A DNA stretch of 63,719 nucleotides, filler included, from Hausera hauseri (lineage: Eukaryota): NCBI GenBank assembly GCA_046269625.1. It is 12 parts of 12 records of this genome, joined end to end, with 100 filler letters (N's around TTAATTAATTAA, not from the genome) between each part and the next. Parts side by side here need not be neighbours in the genome. Positions count along the whole stretch, not along the records: positions 45,650 to 49,736 come from JBJURY010769872.1; 11 more parts are not named here. One strand, written 5' to 3'. Positions within the stretch are counted from its first letter, which is position 1; each line of letters opens with the position of its first letter. A program made the position numbers and the translations under genes. The notes below the pieces were generated by a model, which had not been told where the DNA came from, ran no database searches, and worked only from the letters and a program-made list of their open reading frames with translations. Shown piece by piece: positions 19,730-63,719 of this stretch.

Positions 19730-19982
19730 CATCCACAGGAGTTGTGTCGGACAATGTGACTTTCTGAACTGTGTTAATAGTGTATTCGAGAAGCTTCGGA
19801 AAAGGCTAACTGTACAAAGGACAGAAATGAACATTGTGCCATGAACAGTGTAAAATTAGTTAGTTGTGGTCTGTGTATTGGAGGTGTGCATGTAGATACC
19901 CTGAATGTGTGGTGTGTCTGTATGACTGCATAGCTATGCAAGAGGTATAGCGTGGGGTGTGGTTGTCGGGACGTCAACATTT

Positions 19983-28695: not shown

Positions 28696-31600
28696 TAAGG
28701 TGTGCCAATTTTGTGATGAAAAAATTTTATTAATTATTTCTGAAAACGACTAGTGATAACCATGTACTATTTGGCATGCTAAATCTGGATCTGGTTTCAA
28801 AAATGACATACTGCATAGTCTAGCTACATCAATACACAGCCAAAAGTTACAACAGTTCTATATTATGTCACACAGCGATGGGACTAACTTGAAATATAAC
28901 ACTGTAACAATTTTTGCAATCCTCGCAGCTTAATGTACATTCTTGAGTTTAAGAATTAAAACCATGTCCTGCTTGCTTCTATTCCAGCTCATAAATTTGC
29001 GACTAATCATCTGGCCCTTGATGTAGTGGTCACGTCTCTCTTGACTGAACATATGAGCGGACGCTTCTGTTGTCATCTTAACTCAGCTCTCTATGGGTTG
29101 TATGTGTGAAGGCCAGTCGGGAACAGGCAGAGGCTTGTAGATGAAGACCTTTAACTGTACTGTAGTTAGAGAACATGTCAAAGGTAGCTCAAAGACTTCA
29201 GATGTCCAATCAATGAGCACTTGCCTCAGTGTTGATGATTGACATCTTTCTACCCCGTACAATGTTGTATTCCACCTGTGTTGAATCATCGCCTTCACCT
29301 CTAATGTTCAATATTTTCTCAACTACATCCTTTCTTTCTTGCTCATCTTCACTGCATAACGTAGTCTGCAGTATTGATTTGCTAAAGCCACACCAGGCTG
29401 TCATTTTTACTGTTGGAATAACAATTGCTTACACTTCTTCTCTTTGTCCTTTCAATAGGTGTAGCTGCAAAAGTGGATGAATTGGTACTTGTGTCCACTT
29501 ACTGTTTATTTTTATGTTGAACCATTTCACCACGTATCCTCCAACACAGAACTCTACAATCATCCTTAACTTATTCGAGTTCTCCCCTTCCATGTCGCGC
29601 CTAAAAATCCATATACGCATAAATCGAATAGCTGTAGTTATTTACCTGCTGTGTGACATAGGTCGCACGTAACAAATGTGTAACAAAGCCAAACCCTTTG
29701 GCACACAACCTATTCTATTGACATTGATAATCCTATAACCATAACTGTGATCTGTACTTAAATCATTGATCACTTCATCACTGAGGTGGAAGAGGGCTGG
29801 TCCAATACATATGGGAGCAAAATCAGGATTTATATCCAAATCAGTGGCAGAGTCCGACATTTTCCCCAATAGACCTGACCATTTGTCGTTGCTTAAAGAT
29901 TTGCCATACAATACTATTACCGAATGTCTTAAAATCATTTCTCCTGTATGAAGGTCACAGACAATCCACACCAGTTTTCTTTCCAGCCATAACTCAACAC
30001 AATGCATCACTCCTCCTTTCTATCCATTGTTAACACTGTATGAATCACCTACAATACTAGTACCATATTATCAGCTATTATTTCAACGTGCTTTTTCTCT
30101 TTTGTTGCATGTTTAGGGACCATGTGGAATTGATATTTACCTCCTAGTTCCATACAAATTGTGTAATGCTCCTCTTTTATCATGCTTAAATACATTTTTC
30201 CATTTTCTTCTGCTTGTGTCATGCTCTTTATTTCAACCCGACGACCATCAAATAACATGCAACTAATGCCACTCTCCGTCAGTTTCTCATCTATTAGTTT
30301 GGTGCATAAATTCCCGACTTTTTACGGAGTTTTTATTATAAAATTTTAAATAAACAACAATGTTTTATTACATAAAGTATTTGCCGTTACAGTCTATGAC
30401 TTTTTGCGATCTTTCTGGCAACAAATGAATTCCTCTTGTGATAAACTCTTTTGTCTTTGATGAGATGAACCCATTGATGCATTTTGTGGCTTGTTTCTCT
30501 TTAGTAAAATATTTCACATACAATACATGTTGTAACGACCTGAAGAAGTGAAAATCAGTTGGAGCAAAATCAGGTGAATATGGCGGATGCGGTAGAACTT
30601 CCCAACCAAGCTCCATATTTGTACTTTTTGTCGCCAAAGCAACATGCTGTCTTGCATTATCATGCAAGAAGATAATTTTTCTCGGACTATGTCCATAAAA
30701 CGGCCGTAATTCTTGAATTTTATCATTCAGCTTCAATAGCTTATTACTGTAGCGTACTGCTGTGACAGTTTCACCAGGTTTGAGCAGCTCCTTGTACAAA
30801 ACACCCTTGGTAATATTGACCTTTGGTGTTGATGTTGATGGTTGTCTTGGATCGAACCATGATCCTTTACGTTCAAAGTTATCGTAGTAAACCCACTTCT
30901 CATCACCGGTAAAAATACGTGGCAAAAAAGATTTCTTTTTATAGCGTGCAAGAAGTGAAATGCACATATTTAGGCGATCAGCCTTATTTCTTTCTGAAAG
31001 TTGATGAGGAACCCATCTACCAACTTTTTGAACCTTTCCTAATGCTTTCAACTTTCTTACTACGGTGGAATGGTTATTTCTAGTCTTTTGTCGAGATTGC
31101 GAGTCGATTGGGTAGGGTCATCATCCAGAAGCTCTTGCAGTTGATCGTCTTCAGTTTCTGACGGTTTATCTTCCAAGTTGATTTCACCATTTTTAAACTT
31201 CTTATACCAGTCTCTAACCGTAGTGAGTCCAATAACGTCTTTTCCATATGTTTCACAAATCCATTCTTTTGCTTCTTTCGCAGATTTCCCAAGATTAAAA
31301 ATAAATAAGATACAATTTCGAATGTGATTCTTTGTGGGATCCATAGTTGAATAATTCGGTTAAATAAAAAACGTTGTTAGAAGGTGTTTTCACTTCATTA
31401 AACGTTTTGATAGACCAGTCGGCTATTTATGCACTACCCTAATACTTTCTTGTCAATTTCTTTCGTTATTATTTCTCGTGCTCTCTTTATCTTGTTGTGA
31501 TCAATCACCAATATAATGTGTGACTTGGTGATAAGTCCTGCATTAATCCAGGCAGCCGTTGCAATCTCTGTTGTCTGTCTAAGCCTATTATTATGTTAGA

Positions 31601-41496: not shown

Positions 41497-44400
41497 ACCA
41501 TTATGGTTCTGGTTATGGTGAATGGGCATGGATGTGAAATCCATATGAGCGGAGGCCTCCTAAATGGGGCCATTGCTCTCCCCATAAAGACACTGGTCTT
41601 TATTCAAACCTTCTTGTCCCTCGGATGAAGGACACAAGGTTAGAAACACTCAGTGTTCTGAGCTTTGTGGGATCCATAAAGGGGTTCCCAAGAATTCTAT
41701 TCCTTTGACTGCTCCAAGCCACACACCGGCCTAAGTAGTGCAAAGAGGTCTCTAATTCAATGCCACAGGCATCACACAGACCATTATCATGGATTCCCAT
41801 CACCATTTTGTGGCGGTTGAGCAGATTGTGCCCAATAAGGACTCCAACCTTTGTACTAAGAGTATTCCTTGTCAGGGAGATGAGAGCTTTCCCAAACCTT
41901 AGATTTGGGTCTGTAATCAGTTCCCGTGCCTATCTACATTCCGTCAGCTCTCTCCAGCAGATTGAGTGTTGATGTCTAATCCAGGCCTGTAGGGCAGTCC
42001 TACAGACTGATGTTGAGATACCTACAACAGGCTCTGGTCCTTTGAAGTGAGCCTGACTGCCAGCTTTTGCAAGGTAGTCAGCTCTCTCGTTACCATAAAT
42101 GCCAGTATGTCCTGGTACCCATTTAACAGTAACACTGTTAACTCTCCCCAGTTGGTTGACTGCTTCGGCACACTCCCAAGCCAGTAATGATGTAAAGTGT
42201 GGCCCTCGGAGAGCTCTGATAGCAGCTTGGCTATCTGTTAGGTTAAATATTTCCTTCTGTGTACACTGAAGGTCTTTGAGAGATGCCACACACTGGTGGA
42301 TTGCATATATCTCAGCTTGAGATACAGTTGCAAAACAGCCTAGTGGGTATTTATGCTCTCTCTCACTACAGTTGTGCAAAAGCAGCACCCCTGCACCTAC
42401 TGAACCCTTCAGAAGGGATCCATCTGTAAAACAGTAAAAATGATTGGGAGACATGTCCGTCGTAGAGAGGTTGATCCAGGCAGACCTGTCTTCTATCTCT
42501 GTCTTAAAACTTGGCTCAAAATTGTATTTTTTGACCATTCTGTCTCCAGGTCCTGCAGCTACTGGAACAGCAGCAACTGCCCAGTCCCAGATTCTGGTGT
42601 GCTGTGAGCCAGATAGGATTTTCCACCTACCAGACTGGCGTAGCCTTACTGCACTGGATGCGGCCTCCCCTAAGATATATAAATCTAGTGGAGGGAGGTC
42701 CAGTAGGACTTCCATGGTTGCCGTGGGTGTTGTTCTGATGGAACCTGTGATGCTCAGGCAGGCCATCCGTTGCACATGGGTGAGCATCACTCTTGCCACC
42801 CCAACTTGGACTCGAACCCACCAGACTAAAGCAGCATAGCATAGCATGGGGCGGACTATGGGCGTGTAGATCCATCTGATAACCTTTGGGGTAGCACCCC
42901 AACGACTACCTGCAATTATATGGCACTGGTGTAGGCACATTGCTGCCTTCTTAAACTTTTCATTTACATGTATTTTCCAGTTAAGCTTTCTGTCTAAATA
43001 GACACCCAAGAATTTAACTGACTGACAGGGAGCGTTCTACACGCTCCAGCTTTGGAGGTGAGAAACCCTTCCTTGACTTCTTATGGGTAAAAAGAACCAG
43101 TTCCGTCTTATTTGGATTGACAGTAAGTTCCTGCTCCCGACACCATCTGGATACTATGTTTAGTCCCCTCTGCATTAGGTTACATACAGTACCCAGGCAG
43201 AAGCCTTCTGTAAGGATGACCAAGTCATCTGCATATCCTTTTGTATAGAGTCTAGATCCATTCAGCTCATTTAGTAAGCTGTTGACAACCAGGAGACAAC
43301 ACAGGGGCTAGATTACTCCTCCCTTTGGAGAGCCCCGTCTGAGGTCTACGGTTATCGAAGAGTCCCCCAGAGTTGAATATGCTTTCCTTGTCCGAAGCAT
43401 GAAAATGAGCCAATTATTATGTTGTCTCATCCACACTTATGCTGGCAAGTGCTCTTTCTATGGTTTCTACAGGTACATTGTCAAATGCTCCCTGTATGTC
43501 TAAAAAGGAGCCAAGCCCATATTGTCCACGTGCCAGGCTGTGTTCTATTCTCAAAACAACATCATGCAAGGCTGTTTCTGTAGAAAGACCTGCCTGATAT
43601 GCATGTTGTTTAGAACTTAAAGGTGATAGCATTAAAATTCCATCCCTTACATGTCGATCTATTAACCTCTCCATTCCCTTCAGCAAGAAAGATGTTAAGC
43701 TGATGGGTCTGAAAGATTTTGCCTCTATATGTTGGTTTACCAGGTTTGGGCAGAAATACAACTTTTGCCATCCTCCACCCAACTGTTTGCTAAACAGGCA
43801 ACATATATTCTAGTTATTGTGTCCAGAAGTACATCCAGTCCTCTTTGAAGAAGCACTGGGAAAATACCATCTGGTCTGCAAGCTTTAAATGGAGCAAACA
43901 TATTAATTGCCCATTTTACTTTAACTTTCGTAATGATGCTTGCTGCTCCGCTTTAATCGTCGTTGGTTGGATTTTGATCGGCGACTGTATCAGGCATTGC
44001 AGTCTCTTCTGCTCCCGGAAAAGGTACCTGGAGAAGAAGCTGAAGCACACTTTCTTGTGTGATAGGCATCCTTCTGGTGGAACAATGAAGGATAGTTGAT
44101 TGACTGGATCCTTTCTAAGAAGCTTGTACAGCTTAGAAGAGGCACTAGCCCTTTAACTTCTTTGCAGAACTTCCTCCAAGAAAGTCTCTTACACTCCCTT
44201 AGAACACTTTTATAGTGGTTGTGGGACTGTACATACTGTTCCCACCTGGTTTTATTTGGTTGGGATCTGTATCTTCGCCATTTACATCTACTGCCTTGCG
44301 GAGGCTGGAGAACTTTCTCCAGACAGGCAGACTTATAGGCAGTTTGCACAGCATCAGTCATGCTTGTGACCTCTGTCTCAATGTCTTGCACAGTTTTGAT

Positions 44401-44800
44401 CCTGGCAATTCTCCCACCCATCAACTGGGATAAACTGCTGATAAACAGATTCCAGTCAGTGTTCTGGATTTCTGTAAGTAATTGGGTGTGGTTTCCCCAA
44501 CTTCAGCTTAAACTAAATTCGTCGATGGTCTGACATAGTTTCCTCTGGGGATACTTGCCAGTCACATACTTTGTTTACCAAGTCCATTGACCCGACTGTT
44601 ATATCCATTACCTCCTCCCTATTAACAGTTTGGAAGGTAGGTACATTGCCCTGATTAAAGACTAGCAGGTCTTCTGTCAGCAAGTATTCTAACAGAGATC
44701 TGCCTCTAGGGTTAATATCAGAGCTCCCCCAGCACACATGATGGGAATTGGCATCACAACCAATGAGTACCAGGAGGCCCTTATCTTTGGCATAATAAGA
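41497..44800 (-). mobile_element. LOA/Lian-like non-LTR retrotransposon (APE-RT-RNase H-CCHC), degraded
   Basis: GCDANSHH..WGSSDINPRG, SDHRRI, FRPISLTSFLLKGMER, FLDIQGAFDN, GYADDLV, GVYLDRKLNW, FTDGS, AEIYAI, TDSQAAI, WVPGHTGIYGNERAD and CDAC...ET..H...C. Confidence 0.9.
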
Positions 44801-45649: not shown

Positions 45650-48545
45650 AGATGAAACTTGGACGAGACATAGAAACTACGTGTCATGAAGAATACAATA
45701 GTAAAAGCGCAGAAATCTCAACCAAGGCAAACGAAAAGGCTGAAGATGTACTTGATGTTGTTCGCGCAAAAGCGAAGAAAAATCTATTACAAGAGTATCT
45801 AGAAAACTTCTCAGATCTCATTTTTGAGTACCTTGACATTTTTGCCAAAGACGAAACAGAGAACAGGCGAACTGATTTGGTCAAATTCAAACTATCATTT
45901 ATGATTGACCCGTTAACAGGAAAAGAAATAGACTTATTGCGGCAACCAATACCAAAGTGGTACCCCTCCAAAAGCACCCCAAAAGGAAGCTGAAGAGCAA
46001 TTTCAAGCTATGCTCGATAAAGGTATCAGAGAACCAAGTCAATCGCCATAGCCGCCTCCCATAGTTATGCCAAAAAAGCTAATAAGACTAAGCACCGTTT
46101 GTGTTTAAATTACGTTACCTTAAATAAGCACTTAATAAATCACGCTTATCCGATTCCTCAAATACAAGACATTATAGACGAACTAAAAGATTGTAAATAT
46201 TTTACCACATTGGATTTGTAGAATGGTTTTTGGCAAATACCCGTATCCGAAGAAGATCGGTGGAAAACCGTGTTTAGGACGCATACAGGGGTTTATCAAT
46301 TTACACGTGTGCCATTTGGTTTAAAGACGGCACCCACATTTTTTCAAGATTTATTCGCTTGGTATTAAAGGGAGTAAATAAAAATGTCGTACATCGACGA
46401 TATCGTAATTGCGTCCAAGATATGGTCTAAACATTTAGTAGAATTAAAAGCAGTATTTGATCGAATCAGGCTTGCAAAGTTAAAGTTAAATTCGAAAAAA
46501 TGCGAATGGTGCAAGAAGGAAGTTAGATACCTCGAATTTGTTGTTTCTCACCAAGGTATATCAACCAGTCCTGATTTAATATTTAAAATATTGGAATACC
46601 CTCCACCAATTAATGTGCACGAGATAAAAGCTTGATTAGGATTGGGAGGATTTTACGCTACATTTGTAGCTGACTCTGCAAAAATTAACCAGCCCCAATA
46701 TAAGCTTTTAAGGAAGGATCAAAAATGGGAATGGGCAGAAGAGAACCAGAATGCATTTGACTATATCAAAAAACGAATGGTGTCAGCACCGATACTGAGA
46801 TACCCCGACTAATCACTTTCATTCATTCTGAAAGCTGACGCCAGTATAAAAGCTATTAGTTACATATTAGCTCAGCAAGACCCCAGCGAAACAACTGAGC
46901 ATGTAATTGCTTACGGAGAACGAAATTTAAATAATGCAGAACAAAAATACTCAACCACTGAATTAAAGCTACTAACCATTCAGGATGGATTGCGACATTA
47001 CGAATATTATGTTTACTGTCACAAAATCATAATATTTACTGACCATAAGGCACTGTTATCCCTGCGCTCCGACAATAGACATATATCAAGCCGACTCCAA
47101 AGGTGGAAGTTAGAGCTTTTGAAGTATGACCTTGAGTATCGATATCGACCAGGAAAAGAAAATATGGATGCAGACGCACTTTCGAGAATACTTTACGAAA
47201 GAATAGTAGCCGCAGTCAATAAACCAATAGATAACGAAAGTGATAAACAATTGAATGAAAAAATCATTAAGAATATGTTACAATAACAACGACAAATTCA
47301 GGTCCGAAATATAGACTTTACAAAATCAAGATCCATTCATTGTTCAAGTCAAACAGTTACTCAATGGACAGTTAGTTGGCCCAGTATCAAATTTCATTCA
47401 ACAATCTTATGCAAAAAAACAGAGAGAATATAGATATTGAAATTGGCATTTTAAGATTAAAAGTCGGTGAGCGACAACTGATTATTGTATCCACACCAGC
47501 AATTAGAGCCGTTGTGCTACAAGAACATGACTCACACTTAGCTGGCCACCCGTTTTGAATAAGACTTTGAAGCGTTTAACCGCAAAATATTATTGGCCTT
47601 AAATGAATAAACATAATGAAGGATGGGTACGTTCGTGTAAAATGTGTGCTACACGAAAAGATAGAGGGTTTCGTGTAAAACTTTTCTAGTTAGTCTATCT
47701 AAAGCTCGGAAGCCAATGGAAGTGTGTTTAATGGATATCTCTGGACTTTTCCAAATTTCCGATTCAGGATATCAATATATATTATCACTTGTTGACTATT
47801 TCTCTCGATATGTTGTGCTAGTACCCTTAAAAAACGTGACTAGTGATACTGTGGCGGAAGCTTTTTTCTATGAGATTGTGGCCGTACTGAGCACGCTGAA
47901 ACAGTTGTTAACTGATCGCGCACCATACTTTATCGGCGAATTTTTCGAAAAACTTTCAAAAATATTCAAATGAAAACACCTGTTAAATACATCCTACTAC
48001 CCTCAATGTCATGGTATCGTTGAAAGGATAAATCATACAATCCAAGGTATTCTTTCCATAAAAGTAGCTCATGACCAAAAATATTGGCAAAACCATTTAA
48101 AAACTACAGCCTTTGCGATTAATACTACCCCTACTAAAGGCACCAATCATTCACCTTTTGAATTAATGTTTGGACGATTGCATTTGTTACCGCTAGATAC
48201 GGAACTATTACCATTATCCTTACAGAGAAGTGACCATATGTATGAACAATATTAGAATTTACTCAAACGATTTGAATATTTTCAGAAGGAAGCAAAGGAC
48301 TTTGGAGAAAAATAGAGAGCAGGATACAAGAAACAGTTCAATAAGAAGGCACGATCACATACGTACAAAATTGGAATTACATAATGGTTTATTATTCCGC
48401 TGTTAAGAAAGGAAAATCGTTAAAATTAACACGTACTGGACTAGGACCGTACAAAGTTGTTGATATGCACCCACAGACACTTTTTAGAAGGGACCAAACA
48501 AATACGAAGCTGTCTCTGTTGAACGAGTCACTCGAGCCCCTGAAT
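45650..48545 (+). mobile_element. pol: Degraded Ty3/gypsy pol (RT, RNase H, integrase)
   Basis: AYPIPQI, GFWQIP, VPFGLK, YIDD, ADAS, IFTDHKAL, YRPGKENMDADALSR, HDSHLAGH, LVDYFSRY, LTDR, GPYKV and SVERVTRAP. Many stops and frameshifts. Confidence 0.9.
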
Positions 48546-49520
48546 CATACAACGACTTTATTTGGGAAACAAATTTCGATTTATCTAACTCAGAAGAACA
48601 TAAAGTAGCCGCACTACTTAAAACTCGCATTCTGAATATACCAGAAAATGGGCATTACAAAGATCACCTCAGCTTGGATAGATGCTTGGTTATCGTTCTC
48701 TTCATTCTAGTGACAATTTTTGTAAAGATTTCTACTGCGATACCAACCCTGAAAAAATCCCAATAGTTAATACAGAAATGATCACACGCGATTCTATTGC
48801 TCATATCGACAAAAGCATTTGCCTGAGGACTCACACACCGGTATTCGTACAACACGAGGTGCATTTTATCTTTACATATAATACATCGTTTATCTGCACC
48901 ATTACTGAGAGACATAATAAAACGTGTTGCCATTTAACTACATAATGACTTACACCTAATATGTAGTATTGAAGACTCACCATAAGGATATTGCTACATG
49001 AAAACCCAACATGATCCTTCATGCTCCCAATTACCAAGACATGACAACGTTAGAAATCCCAGATATAGTAGAGCGTAATCCTTTTATTGCTCGATTCTTG
49101 GAGAATGATATTAAAATTTAGGGTATAAACCTTAAACCAAAAATCCCATTTATGAATTTCCGTACCATGCAATTGCTACCTGTCAACTACGAAATCATCA
49201 TATGGCTCGATCCTGTTTCCACTGTTATAGCACAACCATATTACTGTTATCTTAAGAGAAACGATACTCGGTCATGTTGTGCATTATACCGATATATTTG
49301 GTACAAACTCCACTCGAAGCATATCGAACGCTGAAAACAATGCAATGAATTAGGGTACATTCCCGCCGATTACCCATTCTTTTTTCAGTGAAACGAAACA
49401 TACCTATTCCAACTTTTGTCATGAATATATTAACTACTCGGAAACCTGTGACACAGAAAACGGTACCAGAATTGAGGACAACCCTCTTTACACGGAAAAT
49501 CCCCATTATGGGTAGGGGAG
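48546..49520 (+). pseudogene. Degraded env-like extension: signal peptide plus C-x9-CC modules
   Basis: The frame carrying VSVERVTRAP continues to CLVIVLFILVTIFVKISTA. Downstream frames contain FICTITERHNKTCCHL and YYCYLKRNDTRSCCAL, then a T-rich stretch. Confidence 0.6.
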
Positions 49521-49664
49521 ATCTGCGCAAATCGCAGAATCAGTCACATACGTTTACACCAAAAGCAAATCAGCATATATTCTATGGGAAATGGATGAAA
49601 AAATTCCAAATAATATTCAAGTTGACACCAGTAGAGGGTTACGCGTTGTCTAGAACAGGGTCAG

Positions 49665-49736
49665 CATGTAAATGCACATGTGAGCACACATGTGCGACAT
49701 GTGAGCAGTCATGAGTGACATGTGAGCACACATGTG
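49665..49736. repeat. Short tandem repeat (acatgtgagc-like)
   Basis: Repeated catgtgag/cacatgtg units. Confidence 0.7.
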
Positions 49737-49836: not shown

Positions 49837-50228
49837 AAAAGGAATTCTACTGCTCCGCGATAACGCACGACCGCATATTGCAAACAAGACCCGCGACAAG
49901 TTGGCAGAAGTTGGCCGGGAGATTCTCCCACATTCGCCGTATAGCCCAGGCACCTCTCCAACAGATTATCATCTTTTTCGGTCGTTATCAAATTTCCTTG
50001 CTAACAAAGACTTTACAAATGATGATGATGTCAAAATAGAATTGTATCGGTTTTTTGCTTCCAAAAACTCGGACTTCTATTCACGTGGCATGGACTCCCT
50101 TGTTGACCGATGGCAGAAGGTGGTCGATGCGAATGGTGCATATTTTATAGAATAAAAAGTTGTTTAATAGATTATACAGGCTTTTGGAATTCGGTGGTAG
50201 GAACATTAATTACTTTTCCGGTACCTGA
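49837..50228 (+). mobile_element. Mariner 3' fragment
   Basis: DNARPH...LPHSPYSPGTSPTDYHLF...LVDRWQKVVDANGAYF, then a TIR-like end (ttacttttccggtacctga) and TA. Confidence 0.9.
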
Positions 50229-51062: not shown

Positions 51063-52112
51063 TTTCGGGTGTAACAAAAGTCTTTTCCAAACATTTTCAT
51101 TGAAAAATATTAACAATCTAACAAAATGTAATAATGTTAATCGGTTACATATTCTCCGCAATTGTTATTAACAGCTTGACAATGGAACAATAGCTTCTCT
51201 ACTTCTTTATGGAAACTTTCTTCGGACATGTCATCCAGTACCTGCAACTAGCATTTTGGTACTTCTTCGTGATCATCATCAGATTTTAGTCATTGAAAGA
51301 GGAATCGATCACATAAATTAAGGTTTGGTTTATATGGACTTTGCCATATAGTGGAAACATTTCGCTTTTCCAGATGATCGGGGTAACTGAATTTGTGGTT
51401 CTCCCTTGGCAATCCATGTACGATTTTCTGATTTTGTTTCGGTGGGAATAAAATTTATCCTGGTTTCATCCTCTACTACGTACACATTGTGTATTTCATA
51501 ACCTAGTAGAATCGGGATTCGGCGAATTTCTTTAGCGCAGTTAATGCGTAATTGCTTATTCCCAGGAGTAAGTTCATGTGGCACATAAACTGAACAAACA
51601 TTGTGCAAACTTAACTCTTCTGTTAGAATACGGTGTACAGTCGTATGATCTATATCTGGCTGCTCTCCTATTTTACGCGTAGACAAATGAGAATCTCCAT
51701 AGATTAGATCTTCAACTGTACTGGTTGCTCTTGGTCGACCACATCTTCAGGAGATCCATTTTCCTTTAAATTCTTTGTACCAATTTCAAATTGTTCGGTC
51801 AGATGGATATTCATTTCCACACGATTCGTTCAACTCCATAGAAACATCTGAAGCAATTACACCAAATCTGTTTCTAGTCATAACATAAAATTCGAAAGAT
51901 TTTTCAACATTCATTATTATCCTGCCCTCGTTGTACTACCTACAACATCAAAAATATCAATGAGTTTTAACTAACCTTTTAAATTTATATTTAAATTCTA
52001 CCAAATCACAGATTATCTATACTAAGATATTCAATTTCCGATAATTACTTCAGAACTGTGGCTGTTCTTAATAAGAAAATTATCACTTCGAAAAGACTTG
52101 TTACACCCTGAG
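51063..52112 (-). mobile_element. Internally deleted mariner-like element
   Basis: TIRs cgggtgtaacaaaagtcttttc / gaaaagacttgttacaccctg. Motifs YVPHELT, EDETRI and SPYKPNLNLCDRFLF. Confidence 0.75.
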
Positions 52113-52174
52113 TATTTGGCTCATAATATTTATATAGAAAGAAATATTAGTAACGTGAATGATAATTAGACAAA

Positions 52175-53457
52175 CAAGGACTGTCCCATTTAAAAACCCA
52201 GCGGACTAAAACGCGTATAACTTTAAAACCACTTCAAAAAATAACAAATTTTTTATCAAGTAGGCTTTGTATTAAGTGACAGAAACCATTGAAACAATTA
52301 GTTTAGTAATCGATTCGTTGTCAGTTTAAAAATGGGAAGTCAAGTGGAAACACGCAAAATCATTATAAAAATTTTACAAGAACACCGAGAATGGAGCTTC
52401 ATCAAAATCGCAAAGGAGGCTGGCGTTTACACATGAACGGTATCAAATGTCATCAGGCGTTTACAAGATTGCATGACAATCAACCGCAAAAAAAGGATTC
52501 GGAGGAAAAAGGGTTTTCGGAGCCCAAGAACAGCCAACAAAGTTGTTGAAATTTTAAGAAGAATGCCAACATCTCTGTAGGGAAAGTGGCTCAAAAAGTG
52601 GGTTGTCCAAGATCAACTGTTCACAGAATTTTAAAAAAAGTGGATTAAAGACCTACAAAGTCCAAAAAGTGCCAGATAGAAACTCTGCGAAGAATGAACT
52701 GGAAAAACAACGTGCCCGAAAGTTAAAAGCTGATTTTTTCTCAGAATTTCGCTGCTGCGTTATGGATGACGAAATTTATGCTTTGGGAGAGTTCTCACAG
52801 CTTCCTGGGCAGGGGTTTTATGTTGCAGACAGTAGAGAGAATGCAGACGAACAATTTAGAACTAGGAAACAGTCGAAATTTCCCATAAGGTTCCTCGTTT
52901 GGCAAGCAGTATGCCCTTGAAGGAAAAGGAACAAATTTTTAGTGGGTCAAGGCAGTGTTGACTCAACAATTTACATCAGGGAGTGCTTGCAAAAGAGACT
53001 TTTGCCATCTTTACGTGAGCACAATGTGTCAACATTCTTTTGGCCGGATTTAGCTTCTTGCCACTACAGTAGGGCGACCATGGAGTGGTACAACGCAAAT
53101 GGAGTGGTTTTTGTTCCAAGGGAAACAAATCCACCAAATTTCCCAGAGCTCGTGCCAATAGAAAGATACTGGGCTCTGGTAAAAAGAGATTTGAAGGAGA
53201 CAAAAAGAACTACCAAGAGTCTACAAAATTTCAGGAGAAAGTGGAAGATGGCGTCAGAGAAAGTGTTTGAAAACTCCATAAAAAGTATGATGGAAGGAGT
53301 TCCAGAAAAAATAAAAAAATTGTCAAAAATAATTTGATATGTAGTTTTATTCGGAATTAAATATGTTTCTAAAACTGGTTTACTTTTGAAAACTGGTCAA
53401 ATGGTTCGGAAGATATATGCGTTTTAGTCTGTTGGATTTTTGAAGTGGACAGTCTTT
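52175..53457 (+). mobile_element. Tc1/mariner-superfamily DD37E (ITmD37E-type) transposon, degraded transposase 52332-53337
   Basis: TIRs aaggactgtcccatttaaaaacccagcggactaaaacgcgtata / tatatgcgttttagtctgttggatttttgaagtggacagtcttt. VMDDE, then WPD followed by exactly 37 residues to the E of PIERYW. Confidence 0.9.
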
Positions 53458-53960: not shown

Positions 53961-54241
53961 TGTATTGCTAGCGTGTACTTTTCGTTTATTACGCAAAGAA
54001 TACGACGCCAGTGTGCCTCCTCACTCGGGGCACCAGTAATAAGTTTATAGATACAAAAAGTTTGGTTTTATAACTTTAAACTTATACTTTATTTACTATC
54101 GTCTGAAGGTTCTCCTTTGTTCAGACTTTTCGGTTATTTATCAGTCTACAGCAACCTGTGGGTTGCCGATAACTTTATTTAGTTTTAATTGACCTTACGG
54201 TATGAGTCTCGTCAGGGGACATACTGACGATACTCCCCCTT
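53961..54241 (-). repeat. Putative PPT (54241-54231) and start of 3' LTR
   Basis: Minus-strand AAGGGGGAGTA downstream of the ORFs. It is followed by TCGTCAG rather than the canonical TG. Confidence 0.5.
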
Positions 54242-54791
54242 ATTTATTGAGTTTATATAACCGGGTTTTACTGTCCGGTTCAGAAAGATAATTGTGGGCC
54301 CTTTTGTTTGTTAATTATCCTATTGCTATACGTATACTTATTGAATGTTACTCACGATTACTACAAAAATAAAATAATCAAATGCAAAATAATTTTATTA
54401 TTACTCAAATGATATTATAAAATAATATAAGAACTTATCAAACAAGATTAAAAAATGGTATAACAAATAGTATACTTACGCGAATCATGCGAATACATAA
54501 CAATGAATTACAATTCAATCTTTTTAGTTCTTTCTTTCTAATCTTCACCAAAAATTTTGGTATTTATATCTTTTGAAAAGTACAGAACCTCGAGCGAAAA
54601 ATAAAAAACAAAATTCAAAATATAGTAAGAGAATGTGAACAAATTAAATGGAATAAATAAATTCGTACACCATGTGAATATAATTTTAACAAATAAATGG
54701 AATAAATAAATTGGTACACCATAAACGAAAATTTAAATTGATCAGAGTTCTCATTAGAATATGTTAATTTGTCAATAGGCAAATGGCCCGA

Positions 54792-55154
54792 TCAGTCGAA
54801 TGACCCGACACCTTCCCCCTCGGATGGCGCTGTCCTCAGTGCCAAGAGGTATGTCTTTAGCGTACCATTGGAATATTGGTAGTTCGCCGAATGGAGGTTG
54901 AGCCAAGATCCTTTGTCTTTAATTCTTTTTTTAAGTATAATTGTCTCTGTTTTTGTCTGGGTTTTTTTCTTAGGTTTATTTGTTAAATCTACGATAGTTG
55001 ATTCCGTTGATTCAGTTAGGCTATTATTAGAGATATTCGATAGTAGTGCCAGATGAGTTGGATTCGTAATTTCATTGGTAGAAGTTGATTGATTTGGAGA
55101 ATCCTGAGTGTCCATCGGTGAGATAGTTGATACCATTAATGTAGGTTCTTCCAT
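54792..55154 (-). CDS. Ser/Thr-rich, basic ORF of unknown function in the retroelement 3' region
   Basis: 120-aa ORF directly downstream of the exonuclease-like fragment; low complexity. Confidence 0.35.
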   Translation of the reverse strand: MEEPTLMVSTISPMDTQDSPNQSTSTNEITNPTHLALLSNISNNSLTESTESTIVDLTNKPKKKTQTKTETIILKKRIKDKGSWLNLHSANYQYSNGTLKTYLLALRTAPSEGEGVGSFD

Positions 55155-55156
55155 TA

Positions 55157-56336
55157 TTAAATGGGTTTTTTTATATTGTTATAGATTTTCAACATAGTTA
55201 TAGCTTTTTCATTTGTTCTTTGTAGGTATTCACCATTATTGTATTTTATCAAAATTTGAGCTTGAGTCAAGAGATTTTCGGGATTTATTTCCTTGGAATA
55301 AAGGAGATCTGTAATTCCCAATACCGCATTAATATCAAACAGAGTAGTGTTGGTTATTTCCATAAACGTTCATTCCTACAATCATTTTACCGATTAATTG
55401 TTGTCGGATCACTGGTTCTGCTTCATATTGGTCTGTTTGACCGATTACATCGGTTTTCTTTAAGCCGGTAATTCGACAGTTATAGTTGTCGATACGGTTT
55501 CGAGGGCAAATAATTTGATTGTGTAAAATATTTCCATCTAGATTCATAATAGTGATTTCAACAGGTGTCTGCTCTTTTGAGCGGATGGGTTTCATAAGGT
55601 AAGCGCCATTTATGGCCATTATAATAACTTCTTCGTTAGGAATTTGTGGTGATCTGGCAAATGATACACCTTGTTCTAGTTGTGATCGGTCTGGAATCTT
55701 AATAGGATAGCTGGCAGGCTTGGGATATTCCAAGTGAGGAAGGGTTTCTCTTCGGGTTATTTCTATATAGATCACTGGCGGGGGTCTGCTTTGTGGTCTC
55801 AAAATTATTGCAGCATTTTTATAAAGACGCTGGTCAAGGCGAATTGTTGTAAAGGGTATAAGGTCTACGGTGTCGATCATTCCGTTCAGATGAGCACGGC
55901 TTTTTATTTGAACAATTTCTTTAACTGCCGATATATAAACTGAGGTAGTACGATTAGAGAGGTCAACGATATCGGATAGCTTGGTTGAAGCAGTTGGCAG
56001 CTGAATAATTAGGCCACTTCGCTGTATAACTAGGTGACCTTTTAGGTTGTTTGGAATTAAAGAACATTTTCCATAGTATAGATAATCTTTCTGTACGGTT
56101 GTATTGAGGTTGGTGATGATATTAAAATAAAACGATTTGGGTCTATCGGCCATCTCTGATCCTTCTCGGACTGAAAGGAAACACATCAATATAAGATAAG
56201 AGAGTGTTTTAAAAATAACATTTTGGTAGGTCGCAAAAAATTTAGCAACCCAATTTTTAATATGTACGTTTTTTGTGTAGGTTGCGAAAATTAGTGCAGC
56301 CTTATCTTTTATGTGTGCATACATATAGTGCAACAT
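55157..56336 (-). CDS. Accessory ORF (one frameshift near 55360) with a C-terminal REX4/ISG20-like DEDDh fold, catalytic residues apparently lost
   Basis: EITIMNLDGNILHNQIICPRNRIDNYNCRITGL...LIGKMIVGMNV...TNEKAITMLKIY parallels the REX4 pattern RVSIVN..G.V..D..VKP...V.DYRT.VSGI...L.GRILVGH...SVEDARATM.LY. Confidence 0.65.
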
Positions 56337-57645
56337 TTGTTAACGGTGAGAGTTGCCGTTTAGAGTCTGATGGCTTTTCAGCCTGGGAGGGCGCATCTAT
56401 ATCATCAACCCAATCATCGTTTTGGGATACCTCTCTTAATAATTTTAATTGTTGTATCATTTTTCTTGTCTTGCGCATTCTACGTCTCACTTTATAGCAA
56501 TAAATTATTGTCGGTAATAATATAATTATTGAAACTAAAAGAACTCCTAGAGTGATAATCATCCAGAGATATCTATTAGAAGTTTCTACTGGGGTTTGTA
56601 TAGTAGTTGTTTTTATAATTTTCCTCGTAACAATCATTGGCAATTTTAACGTTTTCTCCATTTTTTTAACAACTTGTAAAGTCTGCCCGTCTTCGTCCAA
56701 TTCTATTATAACGACTTTATAGTTTGTGTTAGCTTTTAAAGGCATACAGACTGATGTTGGCTCTTCCTGAGTTAAGACTCCTTCGCTAATTACTTTATGA
56801 TTAAGATGACACTCAAATTTTATATTCGTGTTCTTTAAGTCAGACACTGTAATAATTAGTGAGTAAGTTGTTGGTTGGATAATTATGTCCAGTTCTTTGA
56901 TACTTTTCTTAGATTCCATAATTGAACTGGTTACCATTTTATATAATGTAGTTAATATATTTGGTTGTGTTGCCAAGATAGTTGTTTTTCTTGTCGAAGT
57001 AGGGGTTACCTTTACCGGGGATCTTACTATTATCTCTGGTCCATCTGCCGTTTTTGACCATGTATAACCATTGTATGTGGTCCAATAGTATATAGTATAC
57101 TGTTTATCGAAAACGATAGGACAGCATTTATAGGGATTTTGATAGTTTGGTTCACAGTGTATACTATTAGTTCCATCAAATATTATATACTTGAATTTTA
57201 TATACTCTGTAATTACAACATCTGGTTCCGCGGTTACACAAGGTCCATCCTTCATGACCTTAGTATAAAATAAAATAAGAAAATATGGTCGATGGAAATA
57301 ATGTGTAGTACCGGGGAATGAGAAGTATGTTCTATAGCTGTGGTCGCTCTTTCCCGTTGCGTATTGAATCCTGTACGTTTCTCCAACTGAAAGTCCGCAG
57401 CAAGTATGTATTGAATGATTGTAGTACAAATCACAATTTTTTGGTGTCGCTTTTTCCACAATAGGTAATTTTGATATGAATATATGTGTATATTCGTTTA
57501 TTGTTAAGTTCCGGTTGGCTGTAATTTTTACACATGGATATTTTCCGACTTGAACAGCTTTTTACTTGACATTCAGAGATTGAGTCGATACACAAGTCAT
57601 TAAACTTAATATCATAAACATTGTTACTAATAATAAATTAAGATT
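56302..57645 (-). CDS. Env-like type I membrane protein in frame with integrase (one TAA at 57562-57564)
   Basis: Signal peptide LNLLLVTMFMILSLMTCVST, three Cys-bearing FN3-like modules, T-rich stalks, TM YLWMIITLGVLLVSIIILLPTIIYCY and basic stop-transfer KVRRRMRKTRK. Confidence 0.75.
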
Positions 57646-58103
57646 TCCACTCCTAATCCTTGATTCTGTTGGTGCTGGCTTACATCTGTTTACGTGGACT
57701 TTTATTGGGTCTATCTTATTTCTTTTATTTTTGTTCAAGTAGATGTTTGTTTCATCTACCTTTTGGACCATATATGGACCTTTATATGGTCTATCCAGTT
57801 TTGGCGTTCTGCCTTTCTTATTTAGGGGCGTGTGTAACATAACTTTGTCTCCCGGTTTGAAACCATGAGATTTGACTTTCTCATCATATCTCTCTTTATA
57901 CTCTTTTTGACATATTTTTATGTCGTAAAGCCAGGTTCCACACACCCAAGTTTTTCTTCCAATAATTTTCTATACTCCATGTCCTTTAGATGAGACACGG
58001 GCATTTTAAAGTCTATATCAACTGGCATGTGCGTATCTCTAAGATACATTAAATAAAACGGAGTTTCTTTTGTCGCAGGATGGATTGTATTCCTTATGGC
58101 GAA
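57646..58103 (-). mobile_element. pol: Ty3/gypsy integrase C-terminal region
   Basis: FAIRNTIHPATKETPFYLMYLRD..MPVD, FKPGDKVML, KLDRPYKGPY (GPY/F) and VHVNRCKP. Confidence 0.9.
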
Positions 58104-60063
58104 NNNNNNNNNNNNNNNNNNNNNNNNNNNNNNNNNNNNNNNNNNNNTTAATTAATTAANNNNNNNNNNNNNNNNNNNNNNNNNNNNNNNNNNNNNNNNN
58201 NNNCTTTGATTGGCTCAAAAAAAATTAGTTGTAGATATTTGTAGACCAGTTAACGTCAAGTTTAGTTTGTATAAACATTTTAATTGACAACAAAATGTTT
58301 ACTTGAACTTAGGTGTACAAACTTTAGCCCAAGTTTCTCTACAAACTTAGAACAAATACTTTGCAAGTTGAAATGGAACCGGAAATAGTGTACTTAGAAA
58401 CATGATATTTTAATTAGAAACAATAGAATGACATTTTAGTAACTTAAATAATACATTTGTTGTCAACGAAGAAATAAAATTAACTGCTCCTTACAGTTTA
58501 TACCTCAAAGCGACGAGAACATAATTTATAAGTTCATGTGTAAAGACATGCTTCTGTGAGTAGGTTTATAGCGAAGAGAAAAAAACCTCTTCCACGTGAC
58601 ATTCCGTGTTTGGAAGTGTAATATGCAAACGATTAGAACATGGCGTCAGTCAATGTATAAAGTTTTATACTGATTGTGGTATTCTTTTGTTAACCAATAC
58701 AAGGGGAAATTGTTGTCATTGAACCAAAAATGTGTGGGCAGTCTTTTGTGTTCCATTCAGTTGGATATGATTGTAGCTACAATTCTTCGTATCATCTGTT
58801 GGATTTTACTCACGAACTATTTTAAAGCAATCTTCATCTTCTTACGTCGCCATTGATTGTTCGCTTGGATAATATACGTACATTATGTATCCTCTGACGT
58901 AAGTATTTAGTTTGTGCTACTATTATCATAACAGCAATCACAGCAGTGAAATTAAAACAAAACGGCCAATTGTTGTCAATTTATAACATTTCGACGCAGA
59001 CCAACAAATGTCACATTAACATATGGAGACTGACGGTCACAATTTCGAAGACCATTGTAGATGCCCAACCGTTTTTACAGTAAAACAGATACGAAAGTTT
59101 GTCACAAATGTTATCAACATGTATTAAATCTGACTTCCCCTGCATCACAAAGATATCCGTGCCTAGTAGTCAGTCCTTAAAATATACGATCTGAACGTTT
59201 GTAAAAACAGTACCGAAGCTGTCGATATCAGGAAAGGATTAACATCGAAACATAAAAGCTGACTTCCTACCATCTTCATGTATCGTATTAGACTAGTATT
59301 ACTATAAGAACCTGATCGGAGATAACTGTAAACCATACGTAAGAACGTTGATGAGAGACAGTAAAAATAACAGTTATAGCTGCTCAGATTGTATTACAGT
59401 TCACATATCAATGTGAATAAATCATACATAGCACATTGAAACTAAACAATACAGTGACTATAGACGCTAGCCAAGCAGCATAACAATAAAGAAGGTATTG
59501 AAACCTCCCCGCCGAAGTTACAAGAGATATTCGAGCCCAGGGGTCATCATCACAAGTTACAGTACGAACCTCAGAATACTTTAATTGGAGAATTAAAAGG
59601 ACAAATAAAACTCTTATTGTGTTTGAGACAAGCATGAGTATTTTATACCGAGCTGGTTAAGGAACGTTATCACCAATCAGACCCGAGGGATAATTTGTGA
59701 CCCAATGATGAACGAGTATATGACAAAACAAAAAACCCGGGGACGTGTTTAACTGCTGGCGCTTAATGAAACTTGTGCCCGCGGGAGACGTCATGATTTG
59801 ATCTGGGAAGAATCCCACCAAGTTTACTGGTATGTATGCGAGCTAATTAAATTACAGAATCAAGTTGTTTGATGACATGACGAGAACGGCTACGTCTGTG
59901 AGTATGGCTTTTATTTAATACCTGACTGACAAGATTACTAGGAATAATCTTCTAATTGTCCACAGTTGAAACCCGCTGTGACGTACAACATACATATCAG
60001 CCATTCAGTAACACCGGCCTCAGGCAACAAATACGCTGAGATATAATTAGCATTATTTTCATA

Positions 60064-63048
60064 ATGGCCCGAGATATCGTTACTTCCGTCAGAAACATTC
60101 TGCCCGTATGTGCCATGTTAATAGCTATCACTTCACAAGAGATAGGTCGGATATCAAGATTAAATGTAAAAGGCAAAACGAGATATCATCTAGTGGACAT
60201 TTTTGATACCAAATCCCATACATCGATGGCGGATGACAATAAAGACAGTTACCATAGGGACGGAAGGATGGAAGGCGCTTATTCAAACAGAGCATATCAC
60301 AATCGGCAATTATCTCATCCGATTAATCACTTTAAACAGCTGCAATCAAAAACAAAATACTACCAAAGTGCAACAAATGGCAGACATCGTTCATCTGTAA
60401 CTAAAGAAAATGCTGCAGTCAGGTCATATATTCCATCACCACAGACATACCGATCCAGTGACAGTAAAAACAGACCGTACATTTTTTCTGCCCATTTAAC
60501 CTCTAGTTTTAATCCCTTACCGTCCAGCCATGAAACTCAAGCCCAGGTCAATAAGAATAATATCAAACAGAGAGATGCTGGCGATGACCTGTCTATGTTT
60601 TATCTGACTCCCTCAGAGACAATAAATAATAATGTACTAACAATGGATCATCACATTACGGAATCACCAGATTATCCTTCAGGACTTGCCAACCATCGTC
60701 AAGAATCAATCACATTTCGTCCTGAATTAGTTACTCATCGTCCAGAATCAATCGCTCATACTCCAGAATCAGCCATTCACGCGCCAAAATCAGTAGATAG
60801 TAAACAAGAATCTTTTGTCAGTATAGAAGACTCTAGAGACGTTATGCAGATGTCATATGTCAGTTCACCATTTATTTTAGACCGTACTCTCGGATTTACA
60901 CAGAATATACCAGAATCTGTAAACCAAACGCCAATATTTATTGATCACAGGCTAGGATCAGTGGACTATATAGAAAGAGGAGAAGACCATATTACAGTAT
61001 CAAAAGACCATATCATAATATCAGTAAACCATACTCCAGAATCAGTTGAATATAAACTGGATTCAATAGACCTAGTACCTTTAGACCAGAAACAAGTAAC
61101 AGCAGATCATACTGCAGGATCAGCAGCTTATACTAAATTAGCAAACCTTTCACCGGGATCTGTACAACAGGGAACGCGGGCTTTAGAAGACGTACCTGCA
61201 GGTGTGACATCAGAACCACTTCGTGAGGTTTCTGCCAGCAGAACCCACTCACGATTTCCTAGTAAAGCGACAAGTTCTACGCCACGCACTGTTGGTGAAA
61301 ATATTTTTTGTTCAGAGTCAAACCAAAGTCACAGAAAGTCCAGACTGAGAAAAGCTGGAGAAGCAAGCGACAGAATGAACTATAGAAACGATATCAATGG
61401 TAATAAAAACAATATTTCAGACCACGAATTCACGATAAAATCTTTTCAGAAGTTCGTCCGACATGGCACTGTGGAATCCGGAAACGGAAATAGGATGGAG
61501 GATACAGGTAGTTTTCAAACTGAGAATCCGGAAAAGTATTCCGTTTATCTCGGAGATTTAAAGCCTGAAAGCGGACAAGATCAGGCCGGTGGCTATTATC
61601 AGCTAGGTATATTTAAACATTTTAATGACGTAAAGAAGGTTTCTCGCATACTTAAAGAGCAGGAGAAAGTAGAACAATTGTCACACCATAAAGACATCGA
61701 AAATGACAAGAGACGTCCTGATGAAAAGAACATAATACAGTCAGGACCAGCCAAAAAAGCTTTACTAAAGAGCCTTGGAAAAAGCCGGCATCCAATCGTG
61801 TCTCAGCTCTCGGAATTGAGCAGGAATAGTTATACACGTTTTTCCTATAATCAAATTGCCGAGGAAAACGATGATAGTCAGCGATATGAGGGGTTGCATT
61901 CTGGGAATTCGACATTGTCTAGACGGTTGGATTCTGAGGAAGTGTCAGATAAGTCTCTAACACGGCCAGATAACACTGGTGTATTCACAACATCATCTTC
62001 CCTTGACTTCAACAATTTTGTATCAGAGAAGAGTTCTCATAATGTTGCAAAGTTAGACCACACTGGATATTCAAGAAGACATAACATCAAAGATATGCAA
62101 GAAGGCGACACCAATGGAGGAGAACCTCACTTTGAACGTTTTAGTGACTCTTATCTGCCTGATACGATGGAGAATCATCTTGGGCACTCGCCGGTTGCTT
62201 TAGCAAAAAATGTACGGTACACAAGTGACAGTTTCAAGGATTTCACTGAAATGGCTAAACTGAACGATTTGACATTTATCAGTGATAGGCGCAAGACTTT
62301 CTACGGCATTAACATGAACACTGGCGTTTTCGATGCCAGGAAAAAAGTGACACGGAACAAAACACATTCTGCCCGCGTGAAACGTTCAATTAGTTTGTCT
62401 TTCAACGCACCTCCACCTTCACCACCATCTTCGGTGTCATTATACTCAGCGTGGACCAATTTCACATTAGTTTCTTCATTTTTATCAACGGAGGCATCGG
62501 TAATATCATCTAGTACGCTGCCTGTGAAAAGACCTTCATTAAACGCAACTCTTGTATTTCCTCAAATAATAAAAGACGCACCATTAGAATTGTCCAACAC
62601 ATCGGCTCCATCGTTAGGGTCATCAGCGGAAATTACGCCCCATGCCTTCTTAAATAAGAAGGCACCAATCTTAGAAAAACAGATTCTCAAGATTGGAGTC
62701 ATTCTGGGCTTTAACTCAAGGCTGCCTTGGGTGATCAACAAAACCAGGCCTGCTATAGAGATGGCGGCTGAGAAGGTTCAAGGGCCGAATGGGTCACTTC
62801 CAAACTTTAATATTCAGATCATCTACAGAGACTCCCAGTGTTCGGATACATTTGGATCTCTCGAGGGCATTGATCTCTATGTAAAAAATTTAGCACATGT
62901 CTTTATAGGACCAAGCTGTGATTATTCAATCGCCCCTTTGGCCAGATTCTCCTATTACTGGGGGGATGGGATCCCCATCCTGACAGCCGGTGCTTTGGTT
63001 AATGCCTTTGAGAATAAAACTGAATTCAGGCTTCTAACAAGAGTTCAG
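60064..63048 (+). CDS. First exon (995 codons) of a natriuretic peptide receptor / receptor guanylyl cyclase-like gene
   Basis: The ANF-receptor domain starts near aa 875: LKIGVIL, RPAIEMAAEKV, YRDSQCS, FIGPSCDYSIAPLARFSYYW, PILTAGA, LLTRVQ. Splice donor cag|gtagat at 63048/63049. Confidence 0.85.
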
Positions 63049-63719
63049 GTAGATATGCAGTCACTTTGTTATACATACGTTTGTTTATTTATAAAATAAA
63101 TTGTAGCATGAGTGAGGAATTGTTATCAAACGCAAGACAGAAGAGCAAATACACGTTCTGACGTCACAAACACAGGGTTTCCCAATAGTTGCCTTAGATA
63201 TGAGTTAACGACATTAAAATTATAGTTAGTCATGTTGATACAATACGAAATTCCAGTACTTCAGGTTTTTACTCCTTTTGTCTAGTGTCTATCTTATTTA
63301 TTTACTCACGTATTTACGCACTCATGTATTTTCTGTCAACAGCCAGAATGAACTTTGTTTTATTTTGTTTTCATTATTTTTTTTCTTCTATTTGTTTATG
63401 CTGTGCCCATATATTTTCTGAACACAGCGTCAAGCTTGCGGTAGAATTCTTCTTTAGTTGTTTCTCCACAATCATTTGTTGGTGCATAACCCTGGATCAC
63501 ATTCATGTTGATTTTCGTTCTCATTGTGCGAAAGGGCGAAATTATAATTCTTGAACCATATGCTTCTCATCCAATAAGCGCTTTCTTTGCTGGGTATGAG
63601 GTGAATTTTCGTCTTCATGACCTGAGTGTATGATTTGTTCTCCTGAGCTCAGTCTCTTCTGTCCTAATCCCATCCACCGTTTTCACAAATTCTTAGTATA
63701 TTTATATTGTAGTTTTTCA

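Follow-up and report, generated by a model that had tools for sequence, protein, structure and literature searches.

A decayed Ty3/gypsy element of Hausera hauseri, a probable member of a lineage with a predicted membrane protein behind its integrase

The window analysed here is the whole 63,719-nucleotide stretch of Hausera hauseri DNA (assembly GCA_046269625.1), in which N spacers separate animal contigs, mostly of about 4 kb each. Our subject is a decayed Ty3/gypsy element, referred to as element B, on contig JBJURY010769872.1, and the coding remnants that follow its integrase. A previous sequence-only reading had proposed that this extension (a signal peptide followed by C-x9-CC motifs) has a counterpart in a second gypsy element of the window, element A, and had taken a third one, element C, as a negative control. 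As that reading stated, A and B lie on different contigs with N spacers between them. The features of B are the following.

45650-49736, plus strand: contig of element B with a decayed Ty3/gypsy pol
46096..47187, plus strand: decayed reverse transcriptase (RT) and RNase H (tblastn with the RT of element C, E 1e-50; Pfam RT_RNaseH, E 4e-26)
47400..48545, plus strand: decayed integrase with zinc finger remnant, core and GPY/SH3-like tail (Pfam rve, E 4e-7; Integrase_H2C2, E 0.012)
48683..48739, plus strand: predicted internal signal peptide (hydropathy only), in frame with the last integrase motif
48781..49001, plus strand: module 1 (B1), fibronectin type III (FN3)-like by analogy; Cys at 48820, C-x9-CC at 48895-48930
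49107..49350, plus strand: module 2 (B2), FN3-like; C-x9-CC at 49245-49280, two stops
49424..49498, plus strand: Thr-rich stretch in another frame, likely a stalk remnant, seen in sequence

The RT, RT_RNaseH and rve matches of B follow one another in gypsy order, which places the element in Ty3/gypsy (Metaviridae). Its RT/RNase H region contains five stops in 384 codons. In the integrase, there are stops as well as frame shifts around 48381 and 48488, and its tail can be aligned to those of other integrases. A search with the B integrase gave a single match (1/739), a snail element with the integrase before the RT.

The stop-free frame 48488-48763 was recovered as described earlier: the counterpart of the last integrase motif stands at its start, and the hydrophobic segment 48683-48739 lies within it. 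With a Kyte-Doolittle value of 3.15 over 15 residues, this segment is the top any-frame value among 58 elements. Both C-x9-CC motifs, starting at 48895 and 49245, are likewise present on the strand of the element. In dinucleotide shuffles of the 1-kb extension, the mean was 0.02 such motifs versus the two seen, and 0/2000 shuffles reached two. The extended pattern C-x9/10-CC-x-hydrophobic-x5-Y occurs at three places in the six frames of the window, namely modules 1 and 2 of A (A1, A2) and B2. Frame changes lie before B1 (~48750) and after its CC (~48935). B2 is read in a frame with four stops in 150 codons versus 13 and 7 in the other two frames, and it lacks the first Cys. A remnant reading LTPNM.Y, which had been proposed as the continuation, lies behind two stops and is probably not the real one; the adjacent frame agrees better with the spacing of the modules and leads on into B2. 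The Thr-rich stretch shares 42% identity over 19 residues with the stalk of A, which is not significant (E 0.35). The contig ends in a CATGTG-rich short repeat (49660-49736), possibly an insertion that cuts the element.

Elements A and C served for comparison. In the list, TM stands for transmembrane segment, S/T for serine/threonine, ORF for open reading frame, LTR for long terminal repeat, and PBS for primer-binding site.

53961-58103, minus strand: contig of element A
57664..58103, minus strand: end of the integrase core and tail of A, where the contig starts; one stop and one frame change
57583..57636, minus strand: predicted signal peptide of A, in frame with the integrase tail; hydropathy 2.46; stop next at 57562-57564
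56305..57561, minus strand: 419-codon open frame of A with three modules, S/T stalk, TM and basic cytoplasmic tail
57561-57313, minus strand: A module 1, C-x10-CC
57288-57016, minus strand: A module 2, C-x9-CC, S/T stalk next
56904-56644, minus strand: A module 3
About 56562-56503, minus strand: TM of A, basic cytoplasmic tail after it
55338..56339, minus strand: accessory ORF of A, an N-terminal part of no assigned family plus an ISG20/REXO4-like DEDDh fold, continuing in another frame to ~55160
54245-54235, minus strand: polypurine tract of A, seen in sequence
54234-54035, minus strand: 200-bp LTR-like segment of A with AGT...ACT ends, PBS-like TGG site next
16601-21057: contig of element C; pol at 16604-19726, plus strand, of an unrelated gypsy element without extension (Pfam rve, Integrase_H2C2)

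Element C is a valid negative control, as its integrase tail has no hydrophobic segment (maximum 0.58), although it is phylogenetically distant and falls in a separate clade with loci L006 and L071. For the stop of A (57562-57564), a lesion is more likely than programmed readthrough, which was also considered: in four relatives the frame is uninterrupted at this place. No second LTR is present on the contig of A to confirm the LTR-like segment, and the contig of B ends earlier. In two public runs from two organisms, the A family is multi-copy and diverse (4148 and 693 contigs); its contigs cover 30 and 29 of 30 bins, with very high depth at the LTR-like end. A PBS-like site directly follows the 3' LTR-like segment of A (54035-53961, minus strand), which would fit two elements in tandem with a common LTR, or a repeat that was collapsed in the assembly.

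Relatives were gathered by integrase scans, which gave 2 loci from viral contigs, 80 from metagenomes and 34 from the genome collection. A first metagenome scan had given no match. Five of the six viral-contig runs were empty, and the sixth returned two F-type errantiviruses. The 34 genome-collection loci are evidently animal elements present in prokaryotic metagenome-assembled genomes through contamination. In the range L083-L113, animal gypsy elements were seen in many such genomes, several of them on long contigs, likely as host contamination.

The four loci nearest to the integrase tail of A (L035, L033, L012 and L021; 43-53% identity) are the same four in which the integrase frame runs on for ~510 residues with hydrophobic segments. 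All four read without interruption from pol to the TM, in the order integrase, (R/K)Y-x-LR, signal-peptide-like segment, beta-rich ectodomain, S/T stalk, TM and short tail. L004 and L008 are broken members with the same plan, L008 without a TM in the frames read. As a measure of the extension, we used a hydrophobic segment (13-residue hydropathy of at least 2.0) in frame right after the integrase. Among the 58 testable of 85 rows in the first set, it was present in six, all of them in the clade (A, L004, L012, L021, L033, L035), and in 0/50 outside elements; B and L008 miss it through frame breaks. Judged by hydropathy alone, B does have a predicted signal peptide in frame after the integrase end. 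In the second set, one of 23 testable loci (of 34) had the segment. This locus, L083, had been picked by its 64% integrase identity alone, and it proved to contain three modules, a stalk and a TM. With both sets pooled, 0/72 testable outside elements have the in-frame segment.

Counting near-copies once, six families besides B have the extension: A, L012, L033/L035, L083, L021 and L004/L008. The integrase end of A is 52-56% identical to those of L012, L033, L035 and L083. Wherever the contig is long enough, the integrase is followed by a predicted signal peptide, ectodomain, S/T stalk and TM helix, and the extension proteins have 2-7 sequons. Between L033 and L035, the ratio of nonsynonymous to synonymous substitution rates (dN/dS) is 0.225 for both modules and 0.23 for stalk, TM and tail, with 0 for the integrase. 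Hence, we regard the extension as a functional protein, evolving at a higher rate than the integrase.

Trees were built on RT, RNase H and integrase columns; near-duplicates, short rows and the long rows L079, L005 and L072 were left out, and A supplied 134 columns only. The extension-bearing families form one clade, with support of 100/99 among 24 rows and 97/97 among 23 rows including L083. B is sister to this clade at 89 in one tree, at 58/89 in the 24-row tree, and at 74/93 once the long rows L037, L016 and L018 are left out. When these rows are kept, a tree joining B to the clade gains 5.4 log-likelihood units over the one from the free search, and the approximately unbiased test does not reject it (p-AU 0.665). 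The highest pol identity of B is to L021 (38% over 614 columns). As to the integrase phylogeny proposed earlier, the trees put the extension-bearing families in one clade, with B as a moderately supported sister that falls outside in three trees. We consider it probable that B belongs to the extension lineage as a decayed, deep-branching member; the copy is a relic and adds depth to the lineage.

The modules are best described as FN3-like. For A2, folded together with four modules of the window, the best of five models (predicted local distance difference test, pLDDT, 76; predicted template-modelling score, pTM, 0.63) has an FN3-type fold. Over the whole domain it resembles FN3-type sandwiches of gp130, fibronectin, ROS1 and ROBO1 (Z 7.0-7.1), with root-mean-square deviations (rmsd) of 2.7-3.8 over 76-91 aligned residues. 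FN3 chains make up most of the top 50 matches at Z 6.3-7.1, values that are modest and tied by other Ig-like sandwiches. With a profile of 11 modules, 13 PDB sequences were matched at E <= 10; every one is a fibronectin, tenascin or Dscam, and the best has E 4.5e-4. Matches to fn3 at 0.88 and 0.90, to be taken as leads only, came from the Atlas. A Leu-x5-Tyr motif in the E-F loop is aligned in A1-3, B2, L012, L033 and L035, and the profile aligns it to fibronectin. The fold of A module 3 is less sure, as it has a weak DUF4773 match (E 0.0035, below the cut-off). A single-sequence fold of the whole 419-codon ORF of A (pLDDT 40) returned only coiled coils in the fold search. The same ORF had no relatives by word-index search (0/1852 candidates), and among 1.84 billion representatives it gave one tenascin-like match (E 7e-5) out of register with the FN3 reading.

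The cysteines vary across the clade: C-x9/10-CC is confined to A and B, the CC is shifted in module 2 of L033/L035, L012 has C-x-C, and L021 and L004 have few Cys. C-x9-CC, which had been taken as a hallmark of the clade, is therefore not one; what is conserved is the signal peptide-FN3-TM architecture. Between A and B themselves, C-x9-CC does occur in both, but A1 has x10, so that the spacings are x10/x9 in A versus x9/x9 in B. The best cross-matches are crossed (A1 with B2, A2 with B1), and B2 is without the first Cys. For A1 versus B2, 2/1000 shuffles scored as high with BLOSUM45 and 49/1000 with BLOSUM62. A profile built from nine modules without B put B2 first among the non-training matches of the window, at 11.0 bits (E 0.03) against 4.3 for the runner-up, and its score beat 500/500 shuffles of the B extension, narrowly (9.8 versus a maximum of 9.7). 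B1 was not detected by this profile.

Other genes of the lineage surround the extension. L021 3-6758 is a single 2252-codon frame encoding a fusion glycoprotein, protease, RT, RNase H, integrase and a second membrane protein; the fusion glycoprotein matches PF24664 Monjiviricetes_fusion (E 4e-85) and lies in frame upstream of protease-RT-RNase H-integrase. No env match was found elsewhere in the window, and no extension matched a Pfam fusion family, while the upstream env of L021 does so at the E value given. The accessory ORF of A matches PDB 1wlj (ISG20; E 6e-5), and the profile of its family matches ISG20L2 (E 1e-8); a word-index search gave it no relatives (0/470). Of the six members with more than 3 kb downstream, five carry the ORF (A, L012, L021, L033, L035), L008 having no match. 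Since the ExoI D-x-E pair is absent from all five (L012 keeps the Asp only), the accessory ORF likely encodes a pseudo-nuclease, as judged from its residues. L033 and L035 have an additional RING ORF (in L035 at 2684-4135, C3HC4, Pfam E 5e-7, between membrane protein and pseudo-nuclease), which is absent from A, L012 and L021. Comparing L033 2055-5270 with L035 2684-5911, identity is 100% in the integrase, 89% in the extension, 52% in the RING ORF and 60% in the pseudo-nuclease ORF, a mosaic that points to recombination just after the TM gene. After the pseudo-nuclease of A follows a 128-codon S/T-rich frame (54795-55178, minus strand) without a meaningful Pfam match, and relatives have long low-complexity tails at this place.

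On balance, we lean towards the view that B is a decayed copy, likely of a Ty3/gypsy lineage that carries a type I protein with two or three predicted FN3-like domains fused to its integrase, likely an attachment glycoprotein of the virus-like particle. The elements of this view differ in strength. We are highly confident that the lineage really has the extension as a membrane protein. Among its possible roles, binding to a host receptor is the likeliest, yet as a specific assignment it is tentative. The earlier claim of a lineage-level feature, as opposed to a one-off capture, is supported by the six-family clade with its signal peptide-ectodomain-TM plan: it holds through relatives in other assemblies, although the comparison of A with B is itself not significant.

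The mechanism that we propose is drawn from the anatomy of the elements and from general knowledge of viral polyproteins. Pol would be made in the cytosol, and the hydrophobic segment after the terminal (R/K)Y-x-LR would act as an internal signal sequence. Signal peptidase would then free the FN3 ectodomain into the lumen of the endoplasmic reticulum, and the TM with its basic inner flank would halt transfer and anchor the protein in the membrane where particles bud. The product would be a type I glycoprotein in the same membrane as Env, in which the fast-changing FN3 surface may bind a host receptor and an Env of glycoprotein B (gB) or G type may carry out fusion. In L012, the segment begins with Met, and its translation could start separately, on a subgenomic RNA. 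More speculative, and rather doubtful at present, is a wider version in which the errantiviruses with gB/G-type Env and the gene order GAG-ENV-POL are two-glycoprotein viruses, the host-derived FN3 protein is the receptor-binding partner released by signal peptidase, and the ISG20-like pseudo-nuclease has an anti-defence role.

Several results weigh against the view of B and its lineage given above. In the frameshift-aware alignment that the sequence-only reading had called for, the extensions of A and B are not significantly similar (score 38 versus a null mean of 37.9; 90/200 shuffles equal or better). The profile-profile comparison fared no better: hhalign gave E 0.044, and 10/100 column shuffles reached the score. 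With Cys masked, no A/B module pair is significant. A hidden Markov model (HMM) of the A modules alone did not rank B (E 7.9), and an HMM from the loci alone found neither A nor B. By these measures the direct homology between A and B is weak, and taken by themselves they would leave the claim with a motif and a position. B shows no TM helix up to its contig end at 49736 (best 19-residue hydropathy 1.33) and no visible accessory ORF; TM and pseudo-nuclease are expected at or beyond the contig end. It also forms a long branch (1.7-2.1), grouped with L037 by FastTree (two runs) and in one quick tree. As to the fold, the other four models of A2 have pLDDT 35-55, the top Z (7.6) belongs to a beta-galactosidase sandwich domain, no fold match reaches Z 8, and the Foldseek rows (EpoR, gp130, fn3) include none at E 0.001; a BFVD structure search gave no match at that level either. 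No module reaches the Pfam fn3 gathering score (best Fn3_Dep-1_3rd, E 0.047), and the modules are therefore called FN3-like and not filed as PF00041. In L021, L004 and L008, the module profile does not recognise the ectodomain, so that FN3 is not supported for this subclade. Finally, an env upstream of pol is seen in one member only; the contigs of A, B and the others start too late.

Among the alternatives, the one that survives best would make the FN3-TM protein a host-modulating accessory on the cell surface, either a decoy that takes up a cytokine-like ligand or a superinfection block, acting with the pseudo-nuclease and RING proteins. Many fold neighbours are indeed FN3 domains of cytokine receptors (EpoR, gp130, G-CSFR), and the clade has other accessory ORFs. 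PMC6431247 describes apoptosis and ubiquitin regulators for Burro. However, non-receptor FN3 domains tie in fold, the sequence profile favours fibronectin and tenascin, the cytoplasmic tails are short and unalike, and fusion to Pol would tie expression to particle assembly. We regard this role as rather unlikely.

Our confidence is lower again that B stands outside the lineage, with an extension acquired on its own or through recombination with an A-like element of that genome. The unstable pol position of B would fit this, and so would the restriction of C-x9-CC to A and B: its absence from the closest pol relatives of A fits exchange between co-resident families. Against it, the mixture-model trees place B sister to the clade, the approximately unbiased test favours that placement, and L021, its nearest relative by pol identity, is a clade member. 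The extension DNAs of A and B share a single 14-base match and otherwise no similarity, so any exchange must be old.

Next comes the possibility that the extension mainly tethers Pol to the budding membrane for packaging of the enzymes in a GAG-ENV-POL polyprotein, with the ectodomain secondary. It draws on the signal segment being in frame after the integrase in four uninterrupted elements and on the great differences among the ectodomains of the families. This we find improbable, as the small residues at the signal-peptide-like ends suggest that the extension is cut off from Pol, and two to three folded domains at dN/dS 0.22 are more than an anchor needs. That the motifs of B are due to chance or to a passenger host-gene fragment without role, as the missing A-B alignment and the heavy decay of B might suggest, is largely refuted by the motif excess over shuffles, the blind profile match to B2, the position of the signal peptide, which six families share, and the purifying selection in relatives, and its probability is very small.

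The rest of the window holds other mobile elements and host genes. The stretch 12485-16296 resembles a Polinton/Maverick (polymerase, ATPase, integrase), with a match for the integrase. Reading frames that are presumably decayed and gag-like occupy the end of a contig at 25488-27400 (minus strand), and a PBS-like TGG is present at 27034. Judging by their translations, the segments at 30371-31117, 41933-44502, 49837-50152 and 51333-53334 comprise fragments of mariner/Tc1-like transposases as well as a non-LTR element with RT and RNase H. Host genes are represented by a mitochondrial carrier (Mito_carr) and a 1019-codon frame with a terminal ANF_receptor domain, at 5315-6643 and 60040-63096.

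To our knowledge, the domains known after a gypsy integrase are nuclear ones such as chromodomains. In the literature, we found no account of FN3 or such a membrane protein at this position, although Repbase or the planarian and nematode genome literature may hold one; the accessible parts of PMC12440569, PMC8220671 and PMC8532177 contain nothing further on the architecture.

Membrane glycoprotein genes 3' of the integrase are shared with insect errantiviruses with F-type env (L001, L002). There, env is a separate ORF of ~600 residues with a furin-like site, in another pol clade, whereas the extension of our clade has no fusion-protein match. Cellular type I proteins with FN3 domains (class I cytokine receptors, FNDC5/FNDC9, receptor phosphatases) resemble the extension in signal peptide, tandem FN3-type sandwiches, TM and short tail, and differ in that the extension sits at the end of a retroelement Pol and no WSXWS was seen. 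Searches for relatives with the A ORF gave no specific cellular donor for the FN3-like modules.

Bdelloid rotifer Juno/Vesta LTR elements have an extra ORF3, with DEDDy exonuclease and TM ORFs, according to the portion of Rodriguez et al. available (PMC5408684). The likeness is that, in gypsy elements, an ORF for a DEDD-family exonuclease lies downstream, along with small ORFs that have a TM; thus, exonuclease capture as such is already known. As far as that portion goes, their nucleases are of the DEDDy (RNase D-like) type, keep the catalytic residues intact and are encoded by separate ORFs, whereas ours are ISG20/REXO4-like without the ExoI pair, and their TM ORFs are separate, whereas the TM protein of the clade is fused to Pol.

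The giant planarian gypsy element Burro/GYPSM1 has a mononegavirus-like env in frame between gag and pol, within one large polyprotein, and accessory ORFs that include RING-related motifs and apoptosis and ubiquitin regulators; its ORF1 of about 4,900 residues contains MATH, BIR and BCL2 domains in an element of more than 25 kb (Arkhipova and Yushenova, PMC6431247, in the text accessible). It thus resembles the clade in the in-frame env upstream of pol (L021), the large polyprotein and the RING accessory ORFs. The accessible description mentions no post-integrase signal peptide, FN3, TM or exonuclease. Conversely, the MATH, BIR, BCL2 and ankyrin domains listed there for Burro were not seen in the clade loci, all of which are partial contigs.

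The closest comparison is with the GAG-ENV-POL errantiviruses. In the accessible parts of their 2026 survey, Chary and Hayashi (PMC13524379) report such elements whose Env is of the HSV (herpes simplex virus)/gB type from Platyhelminthes, Bryozoa and Nematoda, and call their entry mechanism unknown, as herpes gB needs partner glycoproteins. The chromodomain is the only domain reported there C-terminal to integrase, and the main text, as available, is without fibronectin or exonuclease. Shared features are the Ty3/gypsy pol and the fusion protein upstream of pol in L021; the difference is that Env is not visible in A or B, whose contigs are short. The L021 Env has motifs in common, by eye only, with the Env of Schmidtea errantivirus 1 and 2 (the part of supplement 2 of PMC13524379 at hand), a likeness that suggests a flatworm lineage. 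The extension protein would be a concrete candidate for the partner glycoprotein of a gB-type Env whose need is raised in that part of the survey. A secretory FN3 membrane protein after the integrase, kept in at least six diverged families, would make Pol part of a membrane-crossing polyprotein; this protein, the pseudo-nuclease and the RING ORFs jointly mark out a complex, retrovirus-like lineage of invertebrates that is rich in accessory genes. What is new here relative to these systems is a clade of gypsy elements in which a signal peptide-FN3-TM protein is fused to the integrase and which has an accessory gene for a likely pseudo-nuclease.

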